A model generated the notes under the pieces. The model searched no databases and was not told where the DNA came from. It saw only the letters and a program-made list of their open reading frames with translations. Below are positions 32,835 to 52,664 of a stretch of DNA of 64,000 nt, piece by piece. Numbering within the stretch: position 1 is the stretch's first letter; every line of letters starts with the position of its first letter. Origin of the DNA: Candidatus Spongiisociaceae bacterium (GTDB lineage: Bacteria; Actinomycetota; Acidimicrobiia; Spongiisociales; Spongiisociaceae); contig OZ253564.1 in the NCBI GenBank assembly GCA_965262915.1, forward strand, positions 3,776,001 through 3,840,000. Reading direction: 5' to 3'. The position numbers and the translations under genes are program-made.

Positions 32835-33563
32835 GCTCCCTCGGCCTGCCGTCGGCTTGCTCTCCTGCCGGCGGGAACCCAACTGCTGGTTCCTGTCGGC
32901 CTGCGGTACGGGCCGGGCCCTCTTGCCAACAACGCCGTCACAACCGGACCGAAGGGACCACGGGACAAGTCCGAACCCCGAGTGGTTTCCGACTGTTCAG
33001 GCAGGTGGGCAGGCACCCGTCGCCTTGGCACTCATGACCGTACCGGGCGCGCTCCGCAGGTACAACTAACCTCTAGTCATGTTAAGACTTGAAGTATATA
33101 GTGGGTGCTAGATTGAGAAAGGGAGCGAAGCGGATGACCACGACCGCTGGTCCCCTAACCGAAAGCCTGGTGGATGCGAGGGACGAGGCTCGTCAGGCGG
33201 AGGTACGTACCGACATCGCGTCGGCGCTACTCAAGATCGAGAAGCGGTTCAACGACCAAACCAAGTGGATCGTCGGGGTTGACATTGCGGTCGCGGCGCT
33301 GCTCATCGCGGTGCTCCGATGACGGAGCCTCGGCGTTCCTCGACGGTGAGGCCCCATTCGTAAGCCGACCCATGGTCGCAAGGCCAACTGTCGCGGTACT
33401 GCACCGGAGCAGGTGGCAGAGGCCGTGCTCCGGTCCCGGCCGGGACGGGATAAGTTCACGGTTCGTCAATCCCGGACGCAGCAGGCCCGCATCAAACCAA
33501 GTCTGTAATCCCCCTCGTATTCGGCGAGCGTGATCTCAAGCATCCGCCTGATCACGCTCCCTC
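32793..33563. repeat. Direct repeat of the mcrB-stop/mcrC-start junction (32793-32842 and 33514-33563)
   Basis: 50-nt copies 721 bp apart, 45/50 identical by manual alignment, including 25 consecutive identical bases. Confidence 0.88.
33134..33322 (+). CDS. Small coiled-coil protein with C-terminal TM anchor (DUF1640/Bdr-like architecture)
   Basis: 62 aa; helical segment then TKWIVGVDIAVAALLIAVLR; RBS-like AGGGAG and AT-rich upstream region. Confidence 0.6.
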   Translation: MTTTAGPLTESLVDARDEARQAEVRTDIASALLKIEKRFNDQTKWIVGVDIAVAALLIAVLR

Positions 33564-35398: not shown

Positions 35399-36682
35399 TC
35401 ATGGTCCTAGGCAAGCCAGTGGAACGACCGCCACCCCGTCAGATCGTTCATAGGAGTATCTTCCGCCGGTGATCACCACCAGCCGGGCGAGGCCAGCGGC
35501 CCGTTCTCTGGCAACGCGGCCTCTGAGTTCCAGCAAGCCTCGTGCCGCCTTGTCGATAGCAGAGGCGCCGCCGAGCTTCACTTCTGCTGCGATCCATCGA
35601 CCGTCGCCGGTCTCGATCACTGCGTCGGCCTCGAGTCCGTAGGTGTCCCGGTAGTGGTATACGGAGGCGTCGCTCGCCTGGGAGTAGATACGCAGATCAC
35701 GGATGGCCATAGATTCGAACAGGAAGCCGAATGCGTTCAGGTCATCAAGATACCGCTGCGGACCTGCACCGAGCACGGCGGCAGCCAGGGATGGATCGAC
35801 GAAGTGACGCTTCGGGGACCGGATAAGGCTGGCCCTTGATCTGATGTGCGTGTTCCACGCAGGCAGATCCTCCACCACGAACAGGCGGCTCAGCACATCC
35901 AAGTACGTCTTTACGGTGGTGCGGTTCAAGGGGACTTCACCGCCTGTCTCGGCTGCCAGCTTCTGGAAACCAGCGGTCGTGGAGACGTTGCGAGCCAGCG
36001 ACCGTATCAGTCGCATCACGCCTCTGGGACTGCGGCGGATCCCATCGACCGCCGAGACATCCACCCGGCAGATGTCGTCCAGGTAGTCGCGGGTGAAGCG
36101 ACGAGCCTCCATCATCGGGGTGTCGATGAGCTGGGGCCAGCCACCGCGACAGGCGGCCCCGACAAGTCCGGGAACGTCCAGGCCCGCTTCGGCGGCCGGG
36201 AGTTCCCGTCCTTCGAGCACCGCCCCGAGCGAGGCCGCTCCGGTGGAGAGTCCGGTTTCCCGGAGCGACATGGGACGCATACGCACGCGACTGATCCGGC
36301 CTGCACCCGAATGGCGGGTCAACTCGTCGGCGGGAACGGCGGACCCGGTGAGTATGAACTGGCCCGGACGACCGCGCCGGTCGCAGGCGGCCCTCACGAG
36401 GTGCCACAACTCGGGGACACGCTGCCATTCGTCCAACAGACGGGGAGTGGGACCGTCGAGCAGGAGCCCCGGAGCATGCGGAGCAATCTCCCAGAGGTCC
36501 GGACGCTCTTCCAGAAATATCTCGCTGCGGGCGAAGTGTTGCCCGGTCCACGTCTTGCCACAACCTTTGGGGCCTTCTATCAGTACGGCTCGCGCCGAGC
36601 GCAACGCCACCGGAACTTCCGTGTCCACGACCCGATCCAGGTAGATGCGCTCGGGATCCGCATGGCCTGGAGTTGTGAGCAT
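35399..36682 (-). CDS. AAA_14 ATPase with DUF4143 C-terminal domain
   Basis: GPKGCGKT, LDEWQ, FILTGS, HSGAGR, GGWP, KRHFVDPSL, YRD..GLEADAV..AEVK. Confidence 0.9.
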   Translation of the reverse strand: MLTTPGHADPERIYLDRVVDTEVPVALRSARAVLIEGPKGCGKTWTGQHFARSEIFLEERPDLWEIAPHAPGLLLDGPTPRLLDEWQRVPELWHLVRAACDRRGRPGQFILTGSAVPADELTRHSGAGRISRVRMRPMSLRETGLSTGAASLGAVLEGRELPAAEAGLDVPGLVGAACRGGWPQLIDTPMMEARRFTRDYLDDICRVDVSAVDGIRRSPRGVMRLIRSLARNVSTTAGFQKLAAETGGEVPLNRTTVKTYLDVLSRLFVVEDLPAWNTHIRSRASLIRSPKRHFVDPSLAAAVLGAGPQRYLDDLNAFGFLFESMAIRDLRIYSQASDASVYHYRDTYGLEADAVIETGDGRWIAAEVKLGGASAIDKAARGLLELRGRVARERAAGLARLVVITGGRYSYERSDGVAVVPLACLGP

Positions 36683-36909: not shown

Positions 36910-37287
36910 TCAGGAAGGTATAACTGCTACCAGGTCGATCTCGACCATTATTCCCAGCAGGTCGCTGCCTACCGTCGTACGAACCGGCTTGGGGTCTCTG
37001 AATCGACGCTCGTACACCCGGTTGAACGCCGCGAAGTCACCGAGGTCCTGGAGGTGCACCGTTGCCTTTACGGCATGGTCGAGGCTGGCACCGGCTGCTT
37101 CCAGAACCGCGCTCAGGTTGTCGATGGTCAGCTCCGTCTGCTCCTCGATGGTGTCGCCGACGACCTTGCCGGTCTCCGGATCCAGCGGACCCATTCCAGC
37201 CGTGAAAACCAGGTTGCCGACCCGCATACCCTGCGAGTATGGACCCGCCGGCGCCGCGGCGGCATCGGTGCGGATTTCTTGTTTCAT
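36910..37287 (-). CDS. RidA/YjgF family enamine-imine deaminase
   Basis: GPYSQ, VKATVHL, FNRVY, PVRTTV, VEID. Confidence 0.9.
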   Translation of the reverse strand: MKQEIRTDAAAAPAGPYSQGMRVGNLVFTAGMGPLDPETGKVVGDTIEEQTELTIDNLSAVLEAAGASLDHAVKATVHLQDLGDFAAFNRVYERRFRDPKPVRTTVGSDLLGIMVEIDLVAVIPS

Positions 37288-37403: not shown

Positions 37404-37793
37404 CTACATGGGAGCGATAGCCGGGATCCCCAGGGCTCGGGCAGCGTCTCCCAAACGCCGGTCGTAGGTCACCACCCCTTTGAGTTCATCACCTAACTCC
37501 AATGCCGCGGCGAGGTGCAGGGCATCCAGGCTGCGGAGCGCAACCGGTTCGAGCATGGCCGCCCGCTCGCACACGGAGGTTGAGAGTTTCAGCAGGATCA
37601 GGGAGTCTAGGAGCCCCCTCGCCTCAGTCATCCGCTCCGGATCAACTCTTGTCGTGACCCTCAACAGCTCCGTCCTCAGGAGATCACTCGACAACACCTG
37701 AGCGTCCACCGCCTCCAACCAACTGCGCATCCCGGTCGAACCTCGCTCCACGAAGATCAACTTCACCGCTGCGGACGTGTCCAGATAGAACAA
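37404..37793 (-). CDS. vapC: VapC family PIN-domain toxin
   Basis: YLDTSA, RTE, LRSLDALHLA, TYDRRL. Confidence 0.9.
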   Translation of the reverse strand: MFYLDTSAAVKLIFVERGSTGMRSWLEAVDAQVLSSDLLRTELLRVTTRVDPERMTEARGLLDSLILLKLSTSVCERAAMLEPVALRSLDALHLAAALELGDELKGVVTYDRRLGDAARALGIPAIAPM

Positions 37794-37795
37794 GG

Positions 37796-38071
37796 TCAGT
37801 ACCGCTCGGCCTCGCGCATCTCCTCCAGCACCTCCGACGGTGCCGGCCTGCCCTGCCCGGGTCGAGCCGGCGGAGGCAGTTCGGTCAGGGATCGGAGCGC
37901 CGGTCGCGCCTGCCCCGACGAAATCAGACCCTCGATCCGGCTCGTAGCGAGCGGCACCATGCGAGCGACTGGCCGACCACGATGCGTGATCGTCACCGAC
38001 TCACCAGCCGTCACCATTGTGACCACAGCCGATGCGTTCTGCTTCAACGCCCGTATCCCTACCTCAGCCAT
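37796..38071 (-). CDS. Phd/YefM family antitoxin
   Basis: VGIRALKQNAS, GESVTITHRGRPVARMVP; directly upstream of the PIN toxin. Confidence 0.9.
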   Translation of the reverse strand: MAEVGIRALKQNASAVVTMVTAGESVTITHRGRPVARMVPLATSRIEGLISSGQARPALRSLTELPPPARPGQGRPAPSEVLEEMREAERY

Positions 38072-38089
38072 GTTCTACAATGTAGCACA
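38071..38089. promoter_or_regulatory. Palindromic TA autorepression operator at the antitoxin start
   Basis: tgttctaca-a-tgtagcaca abuts the ATG. Confidence 0.6.
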
Positions 38090-38218
38090 ACGTGCTCGTT
38101 GACCCGGCCCGCAAGCCATGTTGCACTACCGGTCCGCAGTTGGCGACGCGACTGTTCACAGCCACGGTGGACGAGATCTTCACGCAGCCGTGACACGTTC
38201 TTCGGCACGCGGGCCGGG

Positions 38219-39745
38219 TCAGGCGAGTGGGCCCGTCACAACCTCGACCGCAGCCACCAGGTCCTCGTCTGTGAGAAGTTCCTCGGCTGCTCCGAGTTCG
38301 GGCGACAGGACACGATCCGGACCAGGGCCGGACACCCGGCTTCGCAGCAGCCGGACAGCCGCTGCGGTGCCGGCGGCCGGTTGCAGTGGTCCGCGCAGGT
38401 CGATGGCGCGCGCGGCTGTGACCCATTCGATGGCGAGGATCCGGCGCACGTTATCGATCACTTGACGGAGTTTGCGGGCTGCGCTCCAACCCATCGAGAC
38501 GTGATCTTCTTGCATCGCCGAGGTTGGATAGGAGTCGACCGAGGCGGGGGCGGCCAGCCGCCGGTTCTCGGCACACATGGCGGCCGCGGTGTACTGGCCG
38601 ATCATCAGACCGCTGTCGACACCGGGGTCGTCTGCCAGGAAGGGCGGGAGACCGTGGGAGCGGTTGTGATCCAGTAGGCGGTCGAGCCGTCTCTCCGCTA
38701 TGGCCCCCACCTCGGCCAGGGCGATCGCCAGGTAGTCGGCAGCCAGGGCAACCGGCGCTCCGTGGAAATTGCCACAGGACTCGACCCGGCCATCGGGTAG
38801 GACCATCGGATTGTCGATCGCCGACGCCAGTTCCCGGTCGGTCACCTCCGCTACGAAAGCAAGGGTATCGCGCGCCGCGCCGTGGACCTGAGGCGTGCAT
38901 CGAACCGAATAGGCGTCCTGCACGCGCAGATCTCCGCTGCGATGGCTGGCGACTATCGGGGATCCCGCGAGAACGGCCCGCAGGTTCGCGGCGCTGGCGG
39001 CCTGGCCTGGATGGGGCCGCAACGCCTGGAGATCGGCGGCATACGCACGGTCGGTGGCCAACAGTCCCTCGACGGTGAGGGCCGCGACGATGTCCGCGAC
39101 AGTGAGCAGGTAGGCAGCATCATGAACCGCCAGGCAGAGCATTCCAAGGATGCCGTCGGTGCCATTCGTGAGCGCCAAGCCTTCCTTCTCGGCCAGCACC
39201 ACCGGTTCGATCCCCTCGGAGGCTAGGACCGAGGCGGCGTCCCGCAATCCGCTGTCGGTCATCACCTCACCTTCACCAATGAGCGCGAGCCCGACGTGGG
39301 CCAGCGGCGCCAGGTCCCCGCTCGCGCCCAGCGACCCGTGCTCGGGGACTCTGGGAACGACACCGGCGTTCAGCAGGCGCAGCAGTCCCTCCGCAACCAC
39401 CGGTCGGGCGCCCGACGCTCCTAGCGCCAGGGTCCTCGCCCGCAGGAACATCATGGCCCGGACCACTTCGGCCTCCACGGCCCGCCCCATCCCCGCCGCG
39501 TGGGAGCGTATGAGCGAACGCTGGAGGGCGATCCTTCTTTGTGTGGGGATCGTCGTGGTCGCCAGAGCACCGAAGCCCGTGCTGACACCGTAGGTGGGTT
39601 CGCCCTCCGCGAGGTGTTCGACGATGGCCCGAGCAGTTCCCATGCGGACGCGGGCCGCTTCGGTCAGGCGAACGTGCTCGCCCAGACGAGCCACCGCGAC
39701 AACATCTGCGACGGTTACTCCCGGACCATCGAGGTACACGGTCAC
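38219..39745 (-). CDS. hutH: Histidine ammonia-lyase
   Basis: YGVSTGFG, LIRSHAAG, MIO-forming GASGDLAPL, KEGLALTNG, QDAYSVRC, GNFHG, QEDHVSMG. Confidence 0.95.
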   Translation of the reverse strand: MTVYLDGPGVTVADVVAVARLGEHVRLTEAARVRMGTARAIVEHLAEGEPTYGVSTGFGALATTTIPTQRRIALQRSLIRSHAAGMGRAVEAEVVRAMMFLRARTLALGASGARPVVAEGLLRLLNAGVVPRVPEHGSLGASGDLAPLAHVGLALIGEGEVMTDSGLRDAASVLASEGIEPVVLAEKEGLALTNGTDGILGMLCLAVHDAAYLLTVADIVAALTVEGLLATDRAYAADLQALRPHPGQAASAANLRAVLAGSPIVASHRSGDLRVQDAYSVRCTPQVHGAARDTLAFVAEVTDRELASAIDNPMVLPDGRVESCGNFHGAPVALAADYLAIALAEVGAIAERRLDRLLDHNRSHGLPPFLADDPGVDSGLMIGQYTAAAMCAENRRLAAPASVDSYPTSAMQEDHVSMGWSAARKLRQVIDNVRRILAIEWVTAARAIDLRGPLQPAAGTAAAVRLLRSRVSGPGPDRVLSPELGAAEELLTDEDLVAAVEVVTGPLA

Positions 39746-39756
39746 TCCTGCACCGC

Positions 39757-40464
39757 CTACGGCCGGAAGAGCGCCAGCGATGCGTCAACGGCCGCGTCGA
39801 CCACAGCCCTGGCGGTGCGTTCCAAGCGGTCCCCCACCATCCGGTCGGCCGGCCCCAAGACCGAGAAGGCTCCCACAACCCCCGAGGCCCCTTGGATCGG
39901 CGCCACCACCGCGGTTACGTCCGGTTCGATTGCGCCCGTGTTGAAGAACGGCGAAGGGGGGGAGCCGGATCTGACGGGGTCGCTCGTCAGAGCTTCGCCC
40001 ACGGCGGTGCCCTTGACGGGCACCGACTTGCCGACCCAACCGACGTGGCGGATGGCCCTCCGGCTCTCCACCGAGGCGATATAGACGGCCTGGCTCCCGT
40101 CCTTGACCGCCAGGTAGGCAGATTCCTCGGTGACATCGGCCAAGCGCTTCAACACCGGTCGAGCAGCTGCGTTGAGGCGGGCGTACGGACCCGACTGGAA
40201 GGCGGCCAGCGCGATCCGCACGAAGGTAGGCCCGACTGAATACCTTCCCACATCGTCCTTGACCAGGTAGCCGTGGCTCGTGAGGACCCGCAGGTGCCGC
40301 AGAGCGGTGCTGACCGGTATCCGGGTCTCGGCAGCCACACCTGTCAGGCCGACCGCCCCACCGGTCACGACCGCGTCGAGCAGGCTCAAGACCCGCTCCG
40401 CCGAGCGTGACACATGAAGCGTCGGACGGGCGTCGTTCTTTGAGGGTGCACCGGCCGCGGTCAT
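39757..40464 (-). CDS. IclR family regulator (probable hut regulator)
   Basis: HTH IPVSTALRHLRVL; TEESAYL, TAVGEAL, VVAPI; divergent from hutU. Confidence 0.85.
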   Translation of the reverse strand: MTAAGAPSKNDARPTLHVSRSAERVLSLLDAVVTGGAVGLTGVAAETRIPVSTALRHLRVLTSHGYLVKDDVGRYSVGPTFVRIALAAFQSGPYARLNAAARPVLKRLADVTEESAYLAVKDGSQAVYIASVESRRAIRHVGWVGKSVPVKGTAVGEALTSDPVRSGSPPSPFFNTGAIEPDVTAVVAPIQGASGVVGAFSVLGPADRMVGDRLERTARAVVDAAVDASLALFRP

Positions 40465-40547
40465 CGAGTTCGGTGGGCCACTAGTGATAGACGGCAGCCG
40501 GGGAACACGAACAGCGACCCGGATAGGGTCCTAGAACAACCGTTTAG

Positions 40548-40562
40548 TTTCATAATCTGAAA
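40548..40562. promoter_or_regulatory. IclR-type operator palindrome
   Basis: TTTCA-taatc-TGAAA between divergent iclR and hutU. Confidence 0.65.
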
Positions 40563-40576
40563 TCTCTTTTTGGTTA

Positions 40577-40606
40577 TTGACAGAATAGTCCCAACATCGG
40601 TATAAT
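40577..40606 (+). promoter_or_regulatory. Consensus sigma70/SigA promoter of the hutU operon
   Basis: TTGACA (40577-40582), 18-nt spacer, TATAAT (40601-40606). Confidence 0.8.
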
Positions 40607-40662
40607 TCAAGGGCTATATCGACCGGCTATGGCCGACCCATCCAGATCCGTGGAGGTCTGCG

Positions 40663-42353
<1,691 letters not shown>

Positions 42354-42354
<1 letters not shown>

Positions 42355-43895
42355 TGGCTGCACGACGGCGGCGGGGCGGGCGCAGAGCCCGTATCGCAGA
42401 CCGCGGCCCCGCCAACCCCCAGCGCCCGTTCCGCCAGCCCCGGCTCCCTTGGCAGCCGGTTCGGGCGATCTCCGATGACCGCCTCGAGGCCATCCACGAC
42501 GCTTCTCTGAAGGTCCTGCGGGATATCGGGATGGACATGCTGCACCCGGAAGCTCGGAGACTCCTAGCCCGCGAGGGCGCCGATGTAGAACCGGACTCGG
42601 CACGGGTGCGGTTCGATCCCGAGATGGTCACCGAACTGGTCGGTTACGCACCCAGCCAGTTCACATTGCACGCCCGCAACCCCGTCCACCACATCCGGAT
42701 GGGTGGGAACTCGGTGGCGTTCGCGGCGGTAGCCAGCCCTCCCAACGTCTCGGGCCTCGGCCGTGATCGACGGACCGGCAATCGCGAGGACTTCAGGAGG
42801 CTCGTGTGCCTCAGCCAGCACCTCAATGTCGTGCATCTGCATGGCGGGTACCCGGTGGAACCCACGGACATCCATCCGTCCGTTCGCCACCTGCAGGCCA
42901 CCCTGGACCTGTTGACGCTTAGCGACAAGGCCATCCACACCTACAGCCTCGGACGGCAGCGTACGCTCGACACCATCGAGATGGCCCGCATCGCTCGCGG
43001 GATCAGCGAGGACGAACTCGACGCCCAGCCGTCCTTGTACACGATCGTCAACACCTCGTCACCTCTGCGTCTCGATGCGCCGATGATCGAGGGAATCCTC
43101 GAGATGTCGGCCCGCAACCAGCCGGTTGTCATAACCCCGTTCACGTTGGCGGGCGCGATGGCGCCGGTGACGATCGCGGGCGCTCTGGTGCAGCAGAACG
43201 CTGAGGCTCTGGCCGGTATCGCCCTCACCCAGGCGGTGCGACGCGGGGCACCCGTAGCGTACGGGGCGTTCACTTCCAACGTCGACATGCAGTCGGGGGC
43301 GCCCGCCTTCGGAACCCCCGAGTACCTGCAGGCAGCGCTTGCGGGCGGTCAACTGGCCCGGCGATACGCCCTCCCCTACCGGTCCTCCAACGCCAACGCC
43401 TCCAACGCCGTGGACCTCCAGGCCACCTACGAGAGCATGTTCTCGCTCTGGGGCGCCGTAATGGGCGGCGCCAACCTGATAATGCACGCGGCCGGGTGGC
43501 TCGAAGGCGGGCTGCGGGCATCCTTCGAGAAGATGGTGCTGGACGCCGACCTGCTGCAGATGATCTGCGCAGCCCTCGAGCCACCCGCCGTGGACGATGG
43601 TGCGCTGGCGCTCGACGCCATCGCCGACGTGGGTCCGGGCGGTCATTTCTTCGGTACCGCCCACACCCAGGCCCGCTACCGCAACGCCTTCCATACACCG
43701 CTCCTGTCCGACTGGCGGAACTTCGAGACGTGGGATGAGGCCGGACGGCCCGATCCGGCCCTGCGAACCGAGTCCCTGGCCAGGGAGTTCCTCGAAGCCT
43801 ACGAGGAGCCCCCGATGGAACCCGCCATCCGGGAGGAGCTCAACGAGTTCGTGGCCCGCCGTGTCGGCGAAGGCGGCGTAGCTACCGATTTCTGA
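42354..43895 (+). CDS. Trimethylamine methyltransferase (MttB) superfamily protein, non-pyrrolysine
   Basis: IHDASLKVLRDIG, NTSSPLRLD, TPFTLAGAMAPVT, SNVDMQSGAPAFGTPE, HAAGWLEGG, VGPGGHF; no in-frame TAG; GTG overlaps hutU stop. Confidence 0.92.
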
Positions 43896-43905
43896 GAGGA
43901 GTTGT

Positions 43906-44583
43906 GTGAAACCCGTCCGCTATAGCCCGGCCCGTCTTCGTATCGACGAGAACCCCACCGGCCATCCGTGCGCCGACATCCGGCACTACGAGGCCGATCT
44001 AGCACTTCTCAATCACCTGCTCCAGGAGCTGCGGGTGCTCCTACGCCAGGCTAGGGCAGGTGAAACGGTTCTCCGTCCGTACCAGACCATAAGCTGGCAC
44101 GAGGACGGACTACGACGTAGGACCGTCATGTGCGATCCGGCGGCCCTACTGAGAGGTCCGGATGTGTTGATCGTCGGATTCCTCGGGAACCGGCGGTCCA
44201 GCGACGAAGCCAACGCGATCGACGAGTTCGAGATAGACGTGATCGGCGAGTTCCGGCAGTACCCGGGAATACTCAGCTACTCCTCCACGGAACTGATCCC
44301 GAACCAATGGGCGAACCTGGTGGTCCACCAGGAGGTCGGAGACCGTGAAGACTGGCGCCACAGCGCGGTTCACATAGAAGCGGCTGAAGAACTGTCCCCC
44401 CGTGTCTATCACAGCGTCCGCATCCATAACGGCCGACTGAGCGGAGGGCCGATCAGCGACGGCAGCTTGATAGTAGAGACCACCAAGTACTGGGACTACG
44501 ACTCGGACCCGATGTGGCACGCGATCCGGACGCTCCCGGGAGGCATCACGACCGCAGACCGCCCGTGGCCGGGCCAACGATGA
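43906..44583 (+). CDS. Hypothetical protein, possible dimeric alpha/beta-barrel (ABM-like) domain
   Basis: Coupled within the operon; PGILSYSS...WANLVV...WRHSAVHIEAA pattern. Confidence 0.7.
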   Translation: MKPVRYSPARLRIDENPTGHPCADIRHYEADLALLNHLLQELRVLLRQARAGETVLRPYQTISWHEDGLRRRTVMCDPAALLRGPDVLIVGFLGNRRSSDEANAIDEFEIDVIGEFRQYPGILSYSSTELIPNQWANLVVHQEVGDREDWRHSAVHIEAAEELSPRVYHSVRIHNGRLSGGPISDGSLIVETTKYWDYDSDPMWHAIRTLPGGITTADRPWPGQR

Positions 44584-45149
44584 CGGTTCGCCGGATCCTT
44601 TCGATAGGCCACCCGGCTCTACGGGTTAGAGCTGCGGAAGTGCCCAACGATGACATTGCCACGGCTGCCATCCAGGATCTGATCGACGATCTCATCGACA
44701 CCATGCGGCACGCCAATGGCTCGGGGATCGCCGCCAACCAGATAGGCGCATCCGTCCGCATAATGATCATGGAGGTCGACAGGAACCCGCGCTACCCGTA
44801 CAAGCCACCCATCCCCCTGACGGTGGCCATCAATCCCGAGTTCGAGCCGCTCGACAACCGGACGGTGGTCATCAACGAGGGGTGCCTGTCAGTCCCGCTG
44901 CGCGGTGAACTGATGCGCTCCGTCAACCTCGGGATTCGCTATACAGACCGCTACGGGAATGGCCACGAACAGGTGTTGCGCGGTCTCACCGCCGGAACCT
45001 GGCAGCACGAGTGCGACCATCTCGACGGGGTCTTGGTGGTCGACCGGATCGACCCCCGGACGCTCACCACCTGGGAGGAGTTCGACCGGCACCATCGTGA
45101 CCCCTTCGTCGAACGCATCACCCGGTTCGTCGCCGAGGTCGGGTCGTGA
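44580..45149 (+). CDS. def: Peptide deformylase family protein
   Basis: All three PDF motifs: GSGIAANQ, EGCLS, QHECDHLDG. Confidence 0.92.
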   Translation: MTVRRILSIGHPALRVRAAEVPNDDIATAAIQDLIDDLIDTMRHANGSGIAANQIGASVRIMIMEVDRNPRYPYKPPIPLTVAINPEFEPLDNRTVVINEGCLSVPLRGELMRSVNLGIRYTDRYGNGHEQVLRGLTAGTWQHECDHLDGVLVVDRIDPRTLTTWEEFDRHHRDPFVERITRFVAEVGS

Positions 45150-46513
45150 AGACCCGGTACTGGTGCGAACTGGCCTGGCTCGGCGGCCCCAGGGCGACCC
45201 CCGGAGTCGTGATCGAGGTCGACGGCGACAGCATCATAGGGGTGGATCCAGGCCAAGCGGCCCCTCCACCCGACGCCACCCCTTTGATGGGTCTTACCCT
45301 CCCGGCGCTGGCCAACGCCCACAGCCACGCGTTTCACCGGGCTCTGCGGGGCCGCACCCACGGCGGTAGGGGTACGTTCTGGACTTGGCGTGACCTGATG
45401 TACCGGGTTGCTGGGATTCTTGACCCGGATAGTTACTACCGGCTGGCTCGGGCGACCTTCGCCGAGATGGCCTTGGCGGGAGTCGGGGTGGTCGGTGAGT
45501 TCCACTACGTCCATCATCGGCCTGCAGGGGGACCCTATGACGACCCGAACGCCATCGGGGTCAGCCTGGCAGCCGCGGCGCGGGATGCCGGAGTCCGTCT
45601 GACCCTGCTCGATGCGCTGTACCTGCACGGAGGGTTCGCCCCGGGATCGGAATCCGGGTACGCCCCGCCGACTCCCGAACAAGGCCGGTTCAGCGACGGG
45701 TCCGTGCATGCCTGGGCAGAGCGGGTGGCGAATTTGGCGGCCGGTGTTTCCGGGCCCCGCACGAAGGTGGGAGCCGCGGTTCACTCGGTACGCGCGGTCG
45801 ATCCGCCGTCGATCGAGGCCGCGGCCCTCTGGGTTAGCGAGAACAAGGTACCGCTTCACGTGCACGTCTCCGAGCAGCCTGCCGAGAACGAGGCGTGCCT
45901 GCAGGTCCACGGTCGAACCCCCACCGCCGTGTTGGCGGAGGCAGGAGCGCTCAGCCCGGACACCACGCTGGTCCACGCCACTCACCTTTCCGACCTTGAC
46001 ACCGCCACGATCGGCGAGGCGGGAGCGCACTGCTGCATCTGCCCGACCACCGAGCGCGACCTGGCCGACGGTATCGGCCCCAGCGAAGCGCTGGTGCGGG
46101 CCGGGGCGAGCCTTTGCCTGGGATCCGACTCCCACGCGGTCATCGACATCCTGGAGGAAGCTCGAGCTGTGGAGTTGGGCCAGCGGGTCCTGACGCACCG
46201 ACGGGGGATCCACTCCACCGAAACCCTCGGCTCCATCGCCACCGTCAACGGGTACAGGTCACTCGGGTGGGAAGACGGAGGCGCGATAAGGCCGGGCTGG
46301 CTCGCCGACTTCACCAGTGTCAGGCTGGACTCGGTCCGGCTGGCCGGGATCGACGCCGGCAACGCTTTCGACGCGGTGATCTTCGCCGCATCGAGCGCCG
46401 ATGCACACAACGTCGTCGTCGGGGGCCGCCCGGTCGTGGTCGATGGAACCCACGTCTCGATCGATGTTGCGGACGAACTCGACTCCGCTATCGCCAAGGT
46501 AGTGACGGCATGA
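45146..46513 (+). CDS. hutF: Formimidoylglutamate deiminase
   Basis: [59 protein letters not shown]. Confidence 0.95.
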
Positions 46514-47709
46514 CGCTGGTGATCGACAACATCGGCGAGTTGGTGACCAATGCTCCCGAACTCGGGGCCGGACCGCTGGGCATCGTCCGCGACGCGGCGA
46601 TCGTGGTAGACGGGGACACCGTGCTCTCGATCCGTCCCGCAGGCGCGTCAGCGGACGAGCGCCTCGACGCCGGGGGCAGGTGCGTCCTACCCGGGTTCGT
46701 GGACTCCCACACCCATCTGGTCTTCGCCGGTGACCGGGCGGAGGAATTCACGCGGCGCATGGCGGGCGAGAACTACGACGGGGGCGGGATCCGCGTGACG
46801 ACCGAGGCCACCCGCGCCGCAAGCCGGGATGAGTTGCGGAGGGGGCTCGACCGCAGGCTCACCGAAGTTCATCGCGCCGGCACCACCACTGTGGAGATCA
46901 AGTCCGGGTACGGGCTGTCGGTCGAGTCCGAAGCCGAGACCACCTCGCTGGCAGCGGAAGTGACCTCCGAGACCACCTTCATGGGCGCCCATGTTGTACC
47001 TCGGGAGTACTTGGGTCGGACCAACGACTACGTCGACCTGGTCTGCGGGCCGATGCTCGAAGCCGTGCGACCCCATGTGCGCTGGATCGACGTGTTCTGC
47101 GAGGAGGGCGCCTTCGACGTGGACCAATCGCGGGCGGTGCTCGAAGCCGGTCGTGCAGCAGGTCTCGGTCTGCGCCTCCACGCCAACCAACTGGGCCATG
47201 GACCCGGAGTCCGGCTCGGCGTGGAGATGGGCTGCGCATCCGTCGATCACTGTACCTACCTCTCCGATGACGACATCGAGGCGCTGGCCGGGAGCGAGAC
47301 CGTTGCCACCTTCCTCCCGGCGGCGGACTTCTCCACTCGTCAGCCGTATCCCGACGCCCGGAGGGTCATCGACGCGGGGGTTACCGTGGCGATCGCATCC
47401 AACTGCAATCCCGGGTCCAGCTACACCACTTCCATGTCGTTCTGCATCGCGCTGGCGGTACGCGACATGAACATGACCATCGACGAAGCACTGGCCGCGG
47501 CAACGACCGGCGGCGCAGCAGCTCTGAGAAGGAAGGACGTCGGGCGCCTCGTCCCCGGTGACCCGGCCCACCTCACCATCATCGACGCACCCAGCCGCCA
47601 CCACCTCGCTTACCGACCGGGCGTTCCGCTGATATGGCGGACGCTCGGCGCCGACTACCGACGACCGGCCACCGACCACCGAAACCAAGAGAGAGAGGTC
47701 ACAGCATGA
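46510..47709 (+). CDS. hutI: Imidazolonepropionase
   Basis: [46 protein letters not shown]. Confidence 0.95.
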
Positions 47710-49163
47710 ACGTCCCCAACCCGACCGGACACAACCAGTGGTATCCATTCGCCAACCGTCCTCTGCCTCCTGACGTAAACGGCGAGGCGGCCAACCCCGC
47801 GGCGATCCCGGTCTTCGACTCCGTACCCCTGCCGCCGAGCGCAAGGTTCGTCGTGGTCGGTGCCGGCATCCACGGACTGTCGAGCGCCTATCACCTGGCC
47901 ATGTATCTCGAGCGTTCGGGCAAGGGTAAGGGCAGCGACGTCGTCCTGATCGACAAGCAGGGCCCCGGCGCCGGCGCCACCGGCCTGGCCTGCGGCTGCG
48001 TCCGGAACCTCTACATGACCCCTCCGCTGCATGCCATCCTGCGCGCCAGCGTGGAAGTGTGGGAATCCGATCCCGTGAACCTCGGCTTCCAGCAGGTCGG
48101 ATATGTCTCGGTAGGCGAGGCGAACCAGGAGGAGGATTACATCAAGCTCCAAGCATCGCAGGCAGCGAGCGGGTATCCGTCGGACCTCTACACGGGCTCC
48201 GACGCTCACGCGTTCCTCAACAAGCTGTGGCCGGACTTCAAGACCGACAACTGCGATATCGTGCTCCACGAGCACCGCTCCGGCTACGCAGGCACCCACA
48301 TCGCCGTGTGGGGCCTCGACCAGAAGTGCCGGCAGTGGGGTGTGCAGCGCGTTTACGGCACCAGTGTCACCGGCTATGCACGCGATGCCTCCGGATCCGT
48401 CACCGCGGTCGAGACCGACCAAGGATCCATCTCCTGCGAGCAGGTCATCGTGGGTGCAGGGGCTTGGACGCCCGTGCACTGGGAGTGGCTCGGCGGCCCT
48501 TCGCACCTCGATGTTCTCTATCCGGATGGCCACGTCGAGGAGCAGATGGACATGTGGACCTACTGGCGCCTGCTCGAAGGTGAGGTCCTTCTGCCCGAAG
48601 GGGTGGACTTCCGCACGGCCCAACACCGGGATTCACCCGTGCTGCACGTCGAACTCATGGACACACCCGTTTATGGCGAAGACGGCGCGATGATCCTGGA
48701 CAACTTCTACGTCTACACCCGCTACGCCGCCGAACGAGTGGGAGCACCCGGACTCCAAGGCGGGACCATCCCCATCAAGATCGGCCCCCGAGCGGCCCTC
48801 GAACCCTACGGCCACCTCAACGATATGTACCAGGCTGATTCGTGGTTCGCCGACTACTACTGTGCCGCTCTCGGGATGCTGTTCAAGCGGCTCGAGAACC
48901 TGCGGCCCTACTTCAAGGAGCGTCGCAACGGGGGTATCGGCGCGTTCACGCCCGACAACGTACCGGTATTCGATCACCTGACCGACAACGCTTGGGTGAT
49001 CGCCGACTCCAACCACGGCTTCAAGATGATCGGTGTGGGCAAGCTTACCGCTCAGATGCTCGTGCATGGTGACAAGCCTGACGAGTTGAAGCCCTTCACC
49101 CTCGGTCGGTACAGCACGGGCGGCACCTTCGGAGACCGGAACTCGAACAGTCCGTGGGTCTAG
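47706..49163 (+). CDS. FAD-dependent oxidoreductase, sarcosine oxidase beta / N-methylglutamate dehydrogenase subunit A-like
   Basis: [60 protein letters not shown]-terminal SPW; MgdA resemblance is from memory. Confidence 0.8.
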
Positions 49164-49183
49164 AAGTGGTGGACCCCCATTAG

Positions 49184-49371
49184 CCTGAATCCACCGATTC
49201 ATGTTCCGAAAACCAATCCTGACCAGGGCGATCTCCGGGATCCACCACTCACAGGAAGTTGCTCCTCTTCCCAGGACCGAACCATCCTTACCAATAGCTA
49301 TCGCCGCAGATCAGGAGGCATTTCCACCATATCTCCATGTCCGCTGCGCGCTCCCCGTCGGTGGATTCAGG
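49184..49371. mobile_element. 188-bp MITE with 14-bp perfect TIRs and 5-bp target duplication
   Basis: cctgaatccaccga (49184-49197) / tcggtggattcagg (49358-49371); ATTAG at 49179-49183 and 49372-49376; no transposase. Confidence 0.85.
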
Positions 49372-49375
49372 ATTA

Positions 49376-49487
49376 GGAGGGTGGTGTGAAACCCCTGCAA
49401 AGGGGTTCGCACGGTAGCCGACAAGCCTCAGACCAGGTGGTTTGCCAGTCGGCGAACCCCGCAGAGATTCGTTGCTCAGCACCCTCC
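49376..49487. mobile_element. 112-bp MITE-like element with IS5-like imperfect TIRs, flanked by TA
   Basis: Left ggagggtggtgtgaaac vs reverse complement of right end ggagggtgctgagcaac (14/17); TA at 49374-49375 and 49488-49489; internal hairpins. Confidence 0.65.
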
Positions 49488-49574
49488 TAAGATGCTGAGC
49501 AACCTCCGGCTTACAGCAGGTCGATCGATGGCATAGACGGTGGCCCGCCGGACGCGGCAAGAGGACGGTAGACG

Positions 49575-50324
49575 TTGAGCACCCCGGCAGAAGCGCCTCT
49601 GAGAGCTGCAACCTATCTGGGCGACAACACACTGGCCATCATGAGCGACCTGGTGGAGCACCTGTCGGAGGCGACAGGAATCGAGGTGGCTGTCGACTGC
49701 ACGGCGGGGAGGAGCACGGCCGAAGCGGGCCGCCAAGCTCCCGACCTTGATCTTGTGTGGATGTGCGGGCACCTGACCGCGTCGCTCATCTCCACGGGCC
49801 GGATGTCCCACAGGATCGTGGCCGCACCGGTCTTCGCCGGGTCCGGGGGACCGGTCTACCACTCGGTGATCGTCAGCCGAGAAGACGGCCCCTCGTCGCT
49901 GCCTGCCGCGCTGGATACCAGGCTGGCAGTTAACGAAATCGAGTCCTGGTCCGGTTTTCTCGGATTGAAGGCCCATGTCGAGCGGTCCTTCCCCGGTGCC
50001 TGGTTCATCGATCAGGCAGTGACCGGTTCGCATCGGGCCTCGATCGAAGCTCTCGCTAACGGGACCTGCGATGTCGCCTCCATCGACGTAACAGTCTGGG
50101 AGCACGCAGTGGCCGAGCAACCCGTCGAGGTTGCCGACCTTCGCGTGATCGACCGCACGGTCGACTGGCCGGCGCCGCCATTCAGCTTGGGGACGCATCT
50201 CGACTTGGGACGACGGAAAAGCCTCAGGGCGGCCCTGCTCGCAATCGGACCATCGGACATAGCCTCCCTGGACGGCGTCGTTCCCGTCGATTCCGGTGTC
50301 TACCAGGAGGTGATGCGTGTCTGA
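49575..50324 (+). CDS. PhnD/SsuA-like periplasmic-binding-fold protein (orphan)
   Basis: DLVWMCG, PVYHSVIV, ESWSGF, TGSHRASI, DVASID, WPAPPF; no signal peptide. Confidence 0.75.
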   Translation: MSTPAEAPLRAATYLGDNTLAIMSDLVEHLSEATGIEVAVDCTAGRSTAEAGRQAPDLDLVWMCGHLTASLISTGRMSHRIVAAPVFAGSGGPVYHSVIVSREDGPSSLPAALDTRLAVNEIESWSGFLGLKAHVERSFPGAWFIDQAVTGSHRASIEALANGTCDVASIDVTVWEHAVAEQPVEVADLRVIDRTVDWPAPPFSLGTHLDLGRRKSLRAALLAIGPSDIASLDGVVPVDSGVYQEVMRV

Positions 50325-50372
50325 CAACCTGGCATGCTTGCTGAATGATGTCTGTTATGTCATTATGCATGC

Positions 50373-50609
50373 ATGCCGGTCCAGATCACCATACGAGGCG
50401 TCCCAGAGGAAGTCCGCGACGAGTTGGCCGCCAGAGCCGCTCTCAACCGTCAGTCGATGCAGGAGTTCCTGCGCACCGAACTCGAGCGCATTGCGTCGCG
50501 ACCGTCCCTCGCCACGCTGCTCTCCGAGGTCAGACGCCGCAAGGAGGCCGCCGGGACCATCGTTCCGAGTTCGCTGATCGTCCATGAGCGAGACGCGGAC
50601 CGGAGGTGA
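50373..50609 (+). CDS. FitA-like ribbon-helix-helix antitoxin
   Basis: ITIRGVPEEVRDELAARAA..QSMQEFLR; GTGA overlap with the PIN toxin. Confidence 0.88.
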   Translation: MPVQITIRGVPEEVRDELAARAALNRQSMQEFLRTELERIASRPSLATLLSEVRRRKEAAGTIVPSSLIVHERDADRR

Positions 50610-51013
50610 AGGCGGTTGTCGACGCTTCGGTGCTGGTCGCGGCGCTGGTCGATACCGGCAACGACGGCCCCTGGGCGGAGAACGTGATTTCGGAGGGTCC
50701 GCTGGCCACACCGGAACTGGCTCTGGTCGAAGCGACCAACATCCTGCGGCGATTGGAGCAGACCGGTCTGATCTCGCAGCTGGAAGCCACGGCCTCCCAC
50801 CGGGACCTGCTGCGGCTGGACGTGGAGTTCTACCCGTTCGCGCCGGTGGCCGACAGGGTATGGGAGTTGCGCCACAACCTCACCAGCTATGACGCCTGGT
50901 ACGTGGCTCTGGCCGAAGCGCTCGATTTCCCACTCGTGACCCTAGACCGGAAACTCGGCCGAGCCCCAGGACCGAGATGCGATGTGATCGTGCCGCCGCG
51001 CAGGAAGGCATGA
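50606..51013 (+). CDS. vapC: VapC family PIN-domain toxin
   Basis: VVDASV, LVEATN, SYDAWYVALAE, VTLDRKL. Confidence 0.92.
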   Translation: MKAVVDASVLVAALVDTGNDGPWAENVISEGPLATPELALVEATNILRRLEQTGLISQLEATASHRDLLRLDVEFYPFAPVADRVWELRHNLTSYDAWYVALAEALDFPLVTLDRKLGRAPGPRCDVIVPPRRKA

Positions 51014-51083: not shown

Positions 51084-52664
51084 CTACAGCGCCGTAGTCG
51101 GCTCGATTCGAGCGGAGGGACGGAGTTTCTTGCCGTTCAACATCGCTCCGATCGGGGAGTAGCGGACCAACAACTGGTAGCTAGCCAGCAGGAGACCGGT
51201 TACCACCGAACAGATCATCAGGAACTTGACTTCCGCCGGGAGGCTCCAATACCGAACGAGCGCTTGGGCGACCACCACCAATGGAAGATGGGCCAGGTAC
51301 AGCCAGTAAGAGGAATCGGAGAGGTATCGAACACCCCGGCGTTCCTTCGGAAGCAGCACACGGAACAACCCGATCAGACCGAGGCACATCCCCCACGCGT
51401 AGGCCACCTGCAGGACAGAGGCCAGCGGCCAGGAGAGCATCTCCGGCTCGAAGGTGAAGACCAAGCCGGCCGGGAACACGACCAGGAACGAAACCGGTAG
51501 GAAGAGCCACCATGGTCTCCCGACCGTGTCGACCAGCGGCATACCCATGCGGCCCTGGCGCCTGTACATCAGGGCCCCGAATGCGAAGAAGGTGGCGTAG
51601 TAGGCCAGTACGTGGGGAAGGGGAACGAGACCATCCGAGGTGTCAGGTCCGAAGACAGGATAGGCGCCACCCCCGCCCATGAAGAGTTGCGGCACGATCG
51701 TAAGGGGGATCATCGACCACATGACCCACCTCGGCCAGATAGCTTGCCCGGGGCGGGGATCCCGGCGGTCCGCCACCCATGCCACTATTGCAAAGCCTGC
51801 CATCAACCAAAGGAGAAACCAGAGGAACCAGAGGTGATAGAAACGTTGGATAGAGGACAGGTCGAGCCGGGCAGCCGAACCGTTGTCTTCCTCCTTTTCG
51901 ACAGCCCCTGCTCCCCAACCCGGGATCTCCAACCACTCCATCCCTTCTGGTAGTGGGTTCCCACCTCCGTAGGTCACCAGCAGGTCGGCCGCCTCCTCAT
52001 GGCCGAAGTGGAAGGCCACGCCGAGGGGCGTCTCGCCCTCCGAAGCGGTGGCGACCGGCTCCGGCTCGGCTCCGCGTGAGAGCAGCAAGTCCAGCATCTC
52101 GGTGTCACCGGTGAGGGCAGCCGCGTGGAGAAGCGTCCAACCGCCCGGCTCGCTGCGGAGGTCGGCATCGAAGCCCCTGTCCAGAAGTTGCTCCACCCCG
52201 AACAAATCACCGACGAACACCTTGCCGAAGATGTCATCGTCCGCCACCTGCGGCGCCGGTGCGGACTCGGCCGCCCAGTCACCGACAAAGCTGGTCAGCG
52301 GAACGATCGCGAACATGGCGATCAACAGCGGGAGCGCCACCCGCCGCAGCCGATGCTTCAGCAGGGCGCCGAGGCCGCGCCGACGCCACAACAGCGCGGT
52401 GAAGAACCCGCTCATCAGGAAGAACACCGGCATCCGGAAGCCGTGTACCGCCCACAGGAACTCGTCGAACAGACCGTCGAGGCCGGAGGTACGGTCCTGA
52501 ACCCACCAAGGCGCCGGGAAGAAGGCCAGGGAGGCATGCAGACCAATGCCCAGCAGCATGGCAAAACCCCGCAGAGCATCCAGGTCGTAACGGCGAGGCT
52601 CTGCGGGCGCGGTGGCTGTCGGCTCCGATACCGGTGAAGTCGAAATGTCGCCCGCCACGATCAC
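51084..52664 (-). CDS. Acyltransferase family 3 (OpgC/MdoC-like) with internal ankyrin repeats
   Basis: DALRGFAMLLGIGLH, HGFRMPVFF, YHLWFL, SYWLYLAHLP; insert GWTLLHAAALTGD..LLLSRGA and GETPLGVA..LLV; start uncertain. Confidence 0.85.
   Translation of the reverse strand: MIVAGDISTSPVSEPTATAPAEPRRYDLDALRGFAMLLGIGLHASLAFFPAPWWVQDRTSGLDGLFDEFLWAVHGFRMPVFFLMSGFFTALLWRRRGLGALLKHRLRRVALPLLIAMFAIVPLTSFVGDWAAESAPAPQVADDDIFGKVFVGDLFGVEQLLDRGFDADLRSEPGGWTLLHAAALTGDTEMLDLLLSRGAEPEPVATASEGETPLGVAFHFGHEEAADLLVTYGGGNPLPEGMEWLEIPGWGAGAVEKEEDNGSAARLDLSSIQRFYHLWFLWFLLWLMAGFAIVAWVADRRDPRPGQAIWPRWVMWSMIPLTIVPQLFMGGGGAYPVFGPDTSDGLVPLPHVLAYYATFFAFGALMYRRQGRMGMPLVDTVGRPWWLFLPVSFLVVFPAGLVFTFEPEMLSWPLASVLQVAYAWGMCLGLIGLFRVLLPKERRGVRYLSDSSYWLYLAHLPLVVVAQALVRYWSLPAEVKFLMICSVVTGLLLASYQLLVRYSPIGAMLNGKKLRPSARIEPTTAL

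Follow-up and report, generated by a model that had tools for sequence, protein, structure and literature searches.

The operon analyzed here lies in a window of 64,000 nucleotides (nt) from the genome of a Candidatus Spongiisociaceae bacterium (contig OZ253564.1, positions 3,776,001 to 3,840,000) and combines genes for histidine utilization (Hut) with genes for a non-pyrrolysine member of the MttB superfamily (mttB), a protein without a named family (hyp), a peptide-deformylase-like metallohydrolase (def-like) and a flavin adenine dinucleotide (FAD) oxidoreductase, here referred to as the flavoprotein. Combining gene neighborhoods, family assignments, promoter alignments and structure models, we suggest that the Hut pathway is extended upstream by N-alpha demethylation, by which histidine betaine (hercynine) and methylhistidines would be converted to histidine and then enter the Hut steps, with the def-like enzyme acting last. 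The substrate in this model is taken from genomic context, and we give the model about an even chance of being right.

Organization of the hut operon

All nine genes named in the initial annotation are real open reading frames (ORFs), and the gene order, the 1- and 4-nt overlaps, the lone 10-nt gap, the consensus promoter and the divergence of the hutU operon from iclR-hutH are present in the sequence as it described them. On the forward strand, hutU (urocanate hydratase; 40663-42354) overlaps mttB (42354-43895) by 1 nt (TAGTG), mttB is separated by 10 nt from hyp (43906-44583), the GTG start of which is preceded by GAGAGGAG, and the remaining four junctions, which join hyp, the def-like gene (44580-45149), hutF (formimidoylglutamate deiminase; 45146-46513), hutI (imidazolonepropionase; 46510-47709) and the flavoprotein gene (47706-49163), are 4-nt overlaps of ATGA or GTGA. 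On the reverse strand lie hutH (histidine ammonia-lyase; 38219-39745) and iclR, encoding an IclR-type regulator (39757-40464; PF09339 and PF01614). The host genome is a single contig of 5.06 Mb that is 96% complete, and its closest relatives by sequence are metagenome-assembled genomes (MAGs) of sponge-associated and other Acidimicrobiia.

The products of hutH (TIGR01225, 653.6 bits against a cut-off of 539), hutU (TIGR01228, 898.7 against 375), hutF (TIGR02022, 454.1 against 413; NF006681, 587 against 362) and hutI (TIGR01224, 350.8 against 298) pass their NCBIfam equivalog cut-offs, and HutU does not reach the cut-offs set for thiourocanate hydratase. Family membership shows these four to be the predicted enzymes for the conversion of histidine to N-formylglutamate. 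HutH has a GASGDL motif, which forms the 4-methylideneimidazole-5-one (MIO) group, at residues 140-145, and the 'SH' motif pointed out in the initial annotation is present as an RSHAAG stretch, which we take to be the histidine-specific switch. In these four enzymes the operon resembles the Pseudomonas-type five-step Hut pathway (HutH, HutU, HutI, HutF, HutG), and the use of a formimidoylglutamate deiminase here too points to N-formylglutamate as an intermediate. It differs in that an FGase-type HutG is absent, with a peptide-deformylase-family gene in the operon instead, in that the regulator is IclR-type and not the GntR-type HutC, and in the presence of four extra genes.

Linkage of MttB and the flavoprotein to hut genes

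The initial annotation treated all four extra genes as an expansion of the operon. In the loci around the 80 closest relatives of the def-like gene, taken from species-representative genomes (the def-centered set), mttB and hyp are found between hutU and the def-like gene in only 12, and the true insertion is mttB plus hyp only. The def-like gene, which adjoins hutF in 79 of the 80 loci (hutU is likewise present in 79), is a core hut gene and not part of the insert. The flavoprotein gene does not belong to the insert either: it follows hutI in 52 of the 80 loci, 40 of which lack mttB. The synteny survey thus finds the extra genes conserved with hut genes elsewhere, and the lack of such conservation, which the initial annotation had named as fatal to its proposal, does not apply.

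Outside the def-centered set, two alphaproteobacterial loci (L238 and L239) have mttB beside a flavoprotein-hutH pair with hutF nearby, L289 has the flavoprotein gene beside hutI and hutU, and in the gammaproteobacterial locus L266 hutH lies ~6 kb from the flavoprotein gene. The hut genes near these proteobacterial flavoprotein loci score as bona fide, and HutH of L238, L239 and L266 keeps the Ala-Ser-Gly (ASG) motif. In total, at least five arrangements join the module to hut genes in Acidimicrobiia, Alphaproteobacteria and Gammaproteobacteria. More broadly, MttB, the flavoprotein, hyp and a PhnD-like protein are found encoded together in different phyla, and among 66 flavoprotein loci that lack the hut core of Acidimicrobiia, 31 have genes for MttB, hyp, a PhnD-like protein or Hut proteins within 7 kb.

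The same link is seen where the genes are apart. All five complete genomes with hut genes and the flavoprotein, in which no mttB adjoins the operon, encode an MttB protein at 56-66% identity elsewhere, and all five with hut genes but no flavoprotein encode only a paralogue at 40-41% identity. The hyp gene is present in one of the first five and none of the second five, and the PhnD-like gene discussed below is in neither set. Because MttB occurs in 5/5, hyp in 1/5 and the PhnD-like gene in 0/5, MttB and the flavoprotein look like the core pair, with hyp and the PhnD-like protein an optional one. An obligate partnership of hyp with the flavoprotein was rejected, given that it was not found in four of the five genomes with hut genes and flavoprotein.

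In a FastTree phylogeny of 110 MttB sequences, the window protein falls in a clade of 17 with 99% support, 16 members of which are adjacent to hut genes and one of which is in a cluster of iclR with mttB-hyp-flavoprotein. Among the 80 closest MttB relatives as a whole, three are in hut operons. Adjacency, presence and absence, MttB phylogeny and the shared operator described next all tie the MttB and flavoprotein families to hut.

A shared operator

A sigma-70-type promoter with a 12/12 match (TTGACA-18-TATAAT; 40577-40606, forward strand) is the only strong promoter-like site within 38000-50500, where two sites with at least 9/12 matches were found against 1.6 expected from shuffles. The -35 box is kept in the hut promoters of relatives, and an alignment of 17 hut promoters revealed the palindrome TTTCA-N5-TGAAA, or its variant TGTCA-N5-TGACA, just 5' of this box in 17/17. 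A search of the promoter region for inverted repeats with a seed of 6 found none; the palindrome, with its 5-nt arms, emerged from the alignment. Here it reads TTTCATAATCTGAAA (40548-40562), and the pattern T[TG]TCA-N5-TGA[AC]A has its single match in the 5.06-Mb genome at 40548. The iclR gene is kept divergent from hutU in 68 of the 80 def-centered loci, and the palindrome is presumed to be the IclR box.

This operator is also the sole match in five distinct loci in which iclR is divergent from (mttB-)hyp-flavoprotein genes and hut genes are lacking. It is found 133-139 nt upstream of a stand-alone mttB in three further loci (L027, L047 and L057), in which the operator-bearing mttB heads mttB-Rieske-DMGDH-like operons (DMGDH, dimethylglycine dehydrogenase); two of these MAGs also carry hut-plus-flavoprotein loci. 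The complete genome G151 has exactly two operator sites, one in the hut promoter and one 71 nt upstream of mttB. A match in locus L040 was dismissed as chance because it is intragenic, within a sulfatase ORF.

MttB as a putative quaternary-amine demethylase

The mttB product is a full-length match to PF06253 (637 bits, spanning positions 1-499 of the 500 in the profile), and its frame is open from 42354 to 43895 with no in-frame stop or UAG. With 307.1 bits it is below the cut-off of 525 for pyrrolysine-type MttB (TIGR02369) and falls outside that family. A full-length PF06253 domain and the lack of a pyrrolysine codon are shared with the quaternary-amine methyltransferases of the superfamily (MtgB for glycine betaine, MtpB for proline betaine, MtcB for carnitine and MtyB for gamma-butyrobetaine), and the corrinoid protein, RACo activator and pterin-binding methyltransferase of such systems are encoded in the host genome too. 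The differences are that mttB is inside a hut operon, where no cognate corrinoid gene accompanies it, and that the host is probably aerobic. The absence of a corrinoid protein from the window, a caveat of the initial annotation, is real, and it is answered by a corrinoid protein encoded at 1.91 Mb (G000:C1:1903000-1922000; locus L296). This cluster, a full set for corrinoid/THF methyl transfer, also encodes a DUF1638 protein, the pterin-binding methyltransferase, the RACo activator, an MttB paralogue (38% identity), a methylenetetrahydrofolate reductase (MTHFR)-like protein, a DMGDH-like enzyme and an electron-transfer flavoprotein (ETF-alpha).

The closest solved relative of the window MttB is an uncharacterized 'putative trimethylamine methyltransferase' (4yyc). 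Against MtgB of D. hafniense (2qne, 9yce) it scores 300 bits. In a study of MtgB, the ligands of glycine betaine are given as Y97, F356, H348 and R312 (PMC13080624). When these positions are mapped through a HMMER alignment to 9yce, the carboxylate ligands R312 and H348 are kept as R343 and H378, whereas the positions of both aromatic cation-pi residues, Y97 and F356, hold A127 and G386 and have a conserved Trp close by, and the window protein is therefore not of the MtgB type. Ala and Gly in place of Tyr97 and Phe356 would leave a roomier pocket, and the predicted pocket fits an amino-acid betaine larger than glycine betaine without singling out histidine betaine. The paralogue in the 1.91-Mb cluster retains the MtgB-type Tyr, and this separate set of MttB and DMGDH-like enzyme already covers a glycine-betaine-type route. 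We propose that the window MttB is a quaternary-amine (histidine betaine) demethylase.

Four other close MttB relatives are followed, 5 kb downstream, by a homologue of hyp, in clusters with a Rieske oxygenase, a DMGDH-like protein, a creatinase-like protein, OpuAC and formate dehydrogenase. Two Chloroflexia loci (L025:1482-2825 and L029:11-1300) carry, 5-7 kb from an MttB gene (63-66% identity), a gene of the histidine ammonia-lyase (HAL) family without the Ala-Ser-Gly MIO motif (GQAD or G-SAD); the two genes are candidate trimethylammonia-lyases beside MttB. In another locus, an ORF of 461 aa directly 5' of mttB and a DMGDH-like gene (L039:6495-7880) has a PhnD-like domain that is confined to the C-terminal 160 residues; its N-terminal 280 residues match no assigned family and its start may be miscalled.

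The flavoprotein as a putative N-methyl-amino-acid demethylase

The flavoprotein (PF01266, 108 bits) belongs to a family with 4680 homologues at 64-88% identity in Actinomycetota, Alphaproteobacteria, Gammaproteobacteria and others. Its structure model (predicted local distance difference test score, pLDDT, 80) has the beta subunit of heterotetrameric sarcosine oxidase (3ada_B) as best fold match, with a template modeling (TM) score of 0.82 at 20% identity, followed by proline dehydrogenase beta (TM 0.86 for that of P. horikoshii) and then by dimethylglycine oxidase (DMGO), monomeric sarcosine oxidase (MSOX) and N-methyltryptophan oxidase (MTOX). With these enzymes and MgdA it shares the two-domain FAD amine-oxidase fold over its full length; it differs in being only ~20% identical, in lacking a GcvT-like folate domain and in forming a separate family of its own. 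Its neighbors in other phyla include genes for the formaldehyde-activating GFA, homocysteine S-methyltransferases, a pterin-binding methyltransferase with MTHFR, and a membrane di-iron hydroxylase. The fold match to sarcosine, dimethylglycine and N-methyltryptophan oxidases, together with the GFA and MTHFR neighbors and the corrinoid system, suggests that the chemistry fits demethylation, and we propose that the flavoprotein is an N-methyl-amino-acid (N-alpha-methylhistidine) demethylase. In Proteobacteria (L216, L218 and L266) the gene preceding the flavoprotein gene often encodes a membrane di-iron hydroxylase that is FA_desaturase-like and has weak similarity to an arginine hydroxylase. Such clusters also hold a PhnD-like gene and genes for an HTH_3 regulator and a glutathione S-transferase (GST), and they represent a different, undescribed cluster type.

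The initial annotation took the flavoprotein to be of the MgdA type, which is not supported: it scores 62.9 bits against TIGR01373, far under the cut-off of 529.45 for the soxB family, of which MgdA is presumably a member (MgdA itself was not compared). Family scans with Pfam and NCBIfam, which were limited to the window genes at 27567-58794, revealed neither SoxA/D/G nor MgdBCD-type genes, in agreement with the absence of MgdBCD from the window that the initial annotation reported.

These results bear on the alternative that the methyl group is on the ring, in which the Hut enzymes would turn N-pi-methylhistidine from anserine or ovothiol into N-methylglutamate, the flavoprotein would be a terminal N-methylglutamate oxidase, and MttB would have a separate role or none. 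The position of the flavoprotein gene at the end of the operon, after hutI, its retention in the 40 hut operons without mttB, the automatic JGI name 'methylglutamate dehydrogenase subunit A' of some homologues at 65-74% identity, and the fate of the ring nitrogen in established Hut chemistry all favor it, as does the report of a Shewanella lyase for which N-pi-methyl histidine betaine is a natural substrate (10.64898/2026.04.22.720169). The distance to the soxB family argues against it, and HutH, HutU, HutI and HutF score as standard equivalogs, the first three showing the same degree of conservation whether or not the operon includes the flavoprotein and giving no sign of adaptation to a methylated ring. 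It also leaves unexplained the co-occurrence of MttB and the flavoprotein, the flavoprotein-hutH adjacency in L238 and L239, and the hyp-flavoprotein operons that are under the hut operator but lack hut genes. This alternative explains less and has less support than N-alpha demethylation, and we consider it improbable.

In the main rival reading, the substrate of the module is a betaine that has no relation to histidine (glycine betaine or proline betaine, for example, or a different N-methylated amino acid), and the module is in the hut operon for shared nitrogen or one-carbon regulation or by accident. It is in line with the Rieske, DMGDH-like, creatinase-like and OpuAC genes around close MttB relatives, with the flavoprotein loci of other phyla that encode methyltransferases like betaine-homocysteine methyltransferase (BHMT), a second DAO oxidase, GFA and GST, with the 35 of 66 non-hut flavoprotein loci without a linked gene, and with the high conservation of the flavoprotein, which suggests one common substrate in all contexts. 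The recurrent joining of the module to hut genes in three bacterial groups speaks against it, as do the hut operator in front of module operons without hut genes and the separate MttB/corrinoid/DMGDH-like set of the genome with its MtgB-type Tyr. On balance we regard this rival as unlikely, although clearly a stronger contender than the ring-methyl alternative.

A def-like gene as a probable replacement of hutG

The FGase-type HutG family PF05013 has no match in the single-contig host genome, control genomes having been matched by the same profile, and the def-like gene (PF01327, 137.4 bits) lies beside hutF in nearly all def-centered loci. From this adjacency and the lack of an FGase-type HutG, the def-like enzyme is a probable HutG replacement, and we regard it as most likely an N-formylglutamate deformylase. 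Among 151 sampled Acidimicrobiia genomes (HutF scored above cut-off, def-like at E <= 1e-35), HutF is present in 22, the def-like gene in 21 and both in 19; of the 129 HutF-negative genomes two have the def-like gene, in one case beside a split hutF. One other family has the order hutF-def and not def-hutF, which suggests that the pairing outlasted a rearrangement. PF05013 is lacking in 17 of the 22 HutF-positive genomes, and the matches that relatives do have are away from the hut locus. We sought a complementary distribution of PF05013 and the def-like gene and found none: both occur in five genomes, and three HutF-positive genomes are without either.

The metal-ligand motifs of peptide deformylases, EGCLS and HExxH, are present in the def-like protein as EGCLSVP and QHECDH and do not vary among the 8 sequences aligned. 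The housekeeping def of the genome, a separate gene at 1.815 Mb, is 33% identical to the def-like protein and lacks both the conserved lineage-specific NPRYPYKP insert, which contains Arg and Lys, and the C-terminal extension of the latter. Against the housekeeping equivalog TIGR00079 the def-like protein scores 99.4 bits, below the cut-off of 103.95, and against the peptide deformylase subfamily model NF001159 it scores 131.7 bits, above the cut-off of 125. Alternatively, the def-like protein could merely be a second peptide deformylase, acting on proteins of histidine growth or representing a resistance-type paralogue, with N-formylglutamate hydrolyzed by an unrelated enzyme elsewhere. The subfamily score, the retention of all catalytic motifs and the five HutF-positive genomes that hold a PF05013 protein besides the def-like gene are compatible with this. 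Given the adjacency to hutF in two gene orders, the co-occurrence with HutF across the 151 genomes, the missed equivalog cut-off, the insert and extension that set it apart from the housekeeping copy, the lack of PF05013 in the genome itself and the location of the relatives' PF05013 matches off the hut locus, we favor the deformylase acting on N-formylglutamate and see very little chance that the second-deformylase alternative is correct. Our literature searches returned no report linking a deformylase homologue to N-formylglutamate.

The hyp protein and its PhnD-like partner

The hyp protein (225 aa) has no match in a Pfam, NCBIfam or PDB profile search, an Atlas search gave only leads below 0.9 to DUF3291 and ABM, and none of the ~490 cluster representatives of its family is named. 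Its model has a pLDDT of 89 and a predicted TM score (pTM) of 0.87, and residues ~83-186 are predicted to adopt an ABM/ferredoxin-like fold, with Z 8.8 to LsrG (2gff; residues 87-182, root-mean-square deviation (rmsd) 1.8 over 94), Z 8.7 to Rv0793 (1y0h) and Z 8.0 to SnoaB; Foldseek gave a probability of 1.00 to 2bbe and 3kg0 (E 1e-4). The model thus places hyp in the ABM/dimeric alpha-beta barrel superfamily at the level of fold only. Its core superposes on ABM proteins (LsrG, SnoaB, Rv0793, IsdG, aldoxime dehydratase) with Z 8.0-8.8 and rmsd 1.8-2.9 over 92-101 residues; it differs from them in having no sequence-level membership, in ~120 extra residues around the core and in being paired or fused with a PhnD-like domain.

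A PhnD-like (PF12974) gene is present in 32 of 42 hyp-centered loci, often starting ~20 nt after hyp, and in two cluster representatives (P0308 and P0342) the two are fused, with the PhnD-like domain N-terminal and hyp C-terminal. From this pairing hyp and the PhnD-like protein are predicted to be one unit, and the PhnD/AioX-like gene at 49575-50324 (forward strand), which the initial annotation left out, would belong with the module. Its product (PF12974, 92 bits) misses the PhnD equivalog cut-off (44 vs 261 bits), has its PDB sequence matches in AioX, ArrX and PtxB (E 1e-11 to 1e-5), and is regarded as cytoplasmic. By eye its N-terminus (LSTPAEAPLRAATYLGDN...) has no hydrophobic signal (no signal-peptide predictor was run), and no permease or ATPase genes adjoin it among the scanned window genes; in export signal and ABC neighbors it does not conform to a periplasmic binding protein for phosphonate, phosphite or arsenic oxyanions. 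In the gap between the flavoprotein gene and the PhnD-like gene (49164-49574) are two interspersed repeat elements (49180-49490), both resembling miniature inverted-repeat transposable elements: one of ~200 nt with 14 other genomic copies at 96-99% identity, and one of ~115 nt with at least 20 copies at 77-88%. These elements account for the wider spacing of the two genes.

The pair also occurs with hut genes on its own. In L193, L197 and L206 hutU stands beside hyp-PhnD-iclR-hutH, and in L204, which holds this same set of genes, iclR-hutH precedes hyp-PhnD; all four loci lack mttB and the flavoprotein. A gene for a TauE/SafE sulfite exporter follows hyp in two loci (L183:10489-11226 and L210:9986-10723), and in a betaine cluster a rhodanese gene abuts hyp (L004:15354-15752); these neighbors are a weak hint of sulfur chemistry for the ABM/PhnD-like pair.

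A model for demethylation ahead of Hut

In our model, the host operon would be the Acidimicrobiia form of the five-step (HutF-type) hut operon, controlled through an IclR-type regulator, an operator that is unique in the genome and a single strong promoter, that in the host lineage absorbed an N-demethylation module comprising the non-pyrrolysine MttB, the SoxB-like flavoprotein, the ABM-fold protein and its PhnD-like partner. First, MttB would move one methyl group from the trimethylammonium of histidine betaine to the 1.91-Mb corrinoid protein, which would act alongside the RACo activator, the pterin-binding methyltransferase and the MTHFR-like gene product. Second, the flavoprotein would oxidatively strip the remaining N-alpha methyl groups as formaldehyde; in relatives, the Rieske and DMGDH-like enzymes encoded directly after mttB, in some cases under a hut-type operator, may assist. 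Third, the L-histidine formed would enter the Hut steps, in which the def-like enzyme, encoded between hutU and hutF, would remove the formyl group in place of HutG. The ABM/PhnD-like pair would be an accessory unit, and it might prepare modified forms, for example by removing an oxidized sulfur group from ergothioneine-type thiohistidines, an idea prompted by two weak leads, the oxyanion binding of the nearest solved relatives of the PhnD-like protein and the TauE gene after hyp in two loci.

In the lyase route, the enzymes histidine betaine trimethylammonia-lyase and ergothionase have no Ala-Ser-Gly MIO motif, and their action sets trimethylamine free (10.1101/2025.08.13.670108). Both that route and the one suggested here would deliver the carbon of histidine betaine to urocanate. 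Given that HutH of the window, like that of L238, L239 and L266, keeps the ASG motif, the route here would differ in that demethylation comes first and an ordinary histidase follows; HutH itself was rejected as a trimethylammonia-lyase because of its GASGDL motif. In our literature searches trimethylammonia-lyases were the only catabolic enzymes for histidine betaine, and the searches found no paper on a demethylative route, no paper holding both 'hercynine' and 'MttB', and nothing relevant on hercynine demethylation or dimethylhistidine catabolism. The main text of the paper naming these sponge Acidimicrobiia genera makes no mention of histidine, betaine, trimethylamine or deformylase.

That MttB strips N-alpha methyl groups from histidine betaine, as first put forward in the initial annotation, is the reading that best fits the data. 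Several observations weigh against it. Enzyme specificity cannot be read from sequence, and the proposed substrate comes from genomic context. The closest MttB relatives outside hut operons (60-67% identity) cluster with Rieske, DMGDH-like, creatinase-like and OpuAC genes and could serve other betaines, and the Ala/Gly pocket signature is common to the whole MttB subfamily and not just to its hut-linked members. Of the 66 flavoprotein loci that are not part of the hut core of Acidimicrobiia, 35 have no linked gene within 7 kb, and some flavoprotein loci (L241 and L260), with a homocysteine S-methyltransferase and a second DAO enzyme, resemble generic betaine/dimethylglycine catabolism. The two sets of five genomes used for presence and absence are related and are not independent samples, and of the genomes with hut genes and flavoprotein four of five lack hyp and all five lack the PhnD-like gene. 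The exact operator is upstream of mttB in only one of the five complete genomes (G151), and a similar box in a Chloroflexota locus beside a 28%-identical IclR and OpuAC suggests that paralogous regulators may share the operator. The genome has no EgtD-type gene, so that any hercynine must come from outside, and the operon has no betaine transporter gene. Finally, the three HutF-positive genomes with neither the def-like gene nor PF05013 are left without a candidate from these two families for the last step.

Genes flanking the operon

A ridA-type gene (Ribonuc_L-PSP; 36910-37287, reverse strand; PF01042, 109.6 bits) lies beyond hutH. Homologues at 87-92% identity are present in 9 of the 12 expanded loci with mttB and hyp and in none of the other 68 def-centered loci, 0.1-1.4 kb downstream of hutH; the RidA-family protein is a possible imine-hydrolyzing helper. 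The variable hutH-ridA spacing in relatives (~0.1 to 1.4 kb) suggests repeated small insertions. Type II toxin-antitoxin pairs are found on both sides of the locus, a Phd/YefM-PIN pair between hutH and ridA (37404-38071) and a FitA-like ribbon-helix-helix (RHH)-PIN pair directly after the PhnD-like gene (50373-51013).

Further out, a membrane acyltransferase of the Acyl_transf_3 family (PF01757) with inserted ankyrin repeats (Ank families) is encoded at 51084-52664 on the reverse strand, a eukaryote-like repeat in a sponge-associated lineage. On the other side are a DUF4143/AAA_14 ATPase gene (35399-36682) and a McrBC-type restriction pair (PF10117 and an AAA_5 GTPase-like ATPase; 31605-35315, reverse strand).

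Implications

Extending the model beyond this genome, Acidimicrobiia and some Proteobacteria and Chloroflexota may have an undescribed demethylative route for histidine betaine, in which one methyl group would pass from MttB via the corrinoid protein to tetrahydrofolate (THF), the flavoprotein would remove the rest, with the help of Rieske or DMGDH-like enzymes in some, and Hut with a recruited deformylase would follow, all in one IclR regulon. We put this general form forward tentatively, as somewhat less probable than the model for the host operon itself. If correct, it would provide a substrate and a role for two large orphan families, the flavoprotein family, which has thousands of members, and the non-pyrrolysine MttB subfamily that is often encountered in aerobic Actinomycetota, Chloroflexota and Proteobacteria. 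Histidine betaine would then have, besides the lyase route described in 2025-2026, a second catabolic route that yields no trimethylamine. Likewise, the def-like genes of hut operons, currently named 'peptide deformylase' in annotations, would represent a peptide deformylase that was co-opted for the catabolism of small molecules and stands in for HutG without being its orthologue. For sponge symbionts, the operon would make methylated histidines derived from the host or the community available as a source of nitrogen, carbon and one-carbon units.

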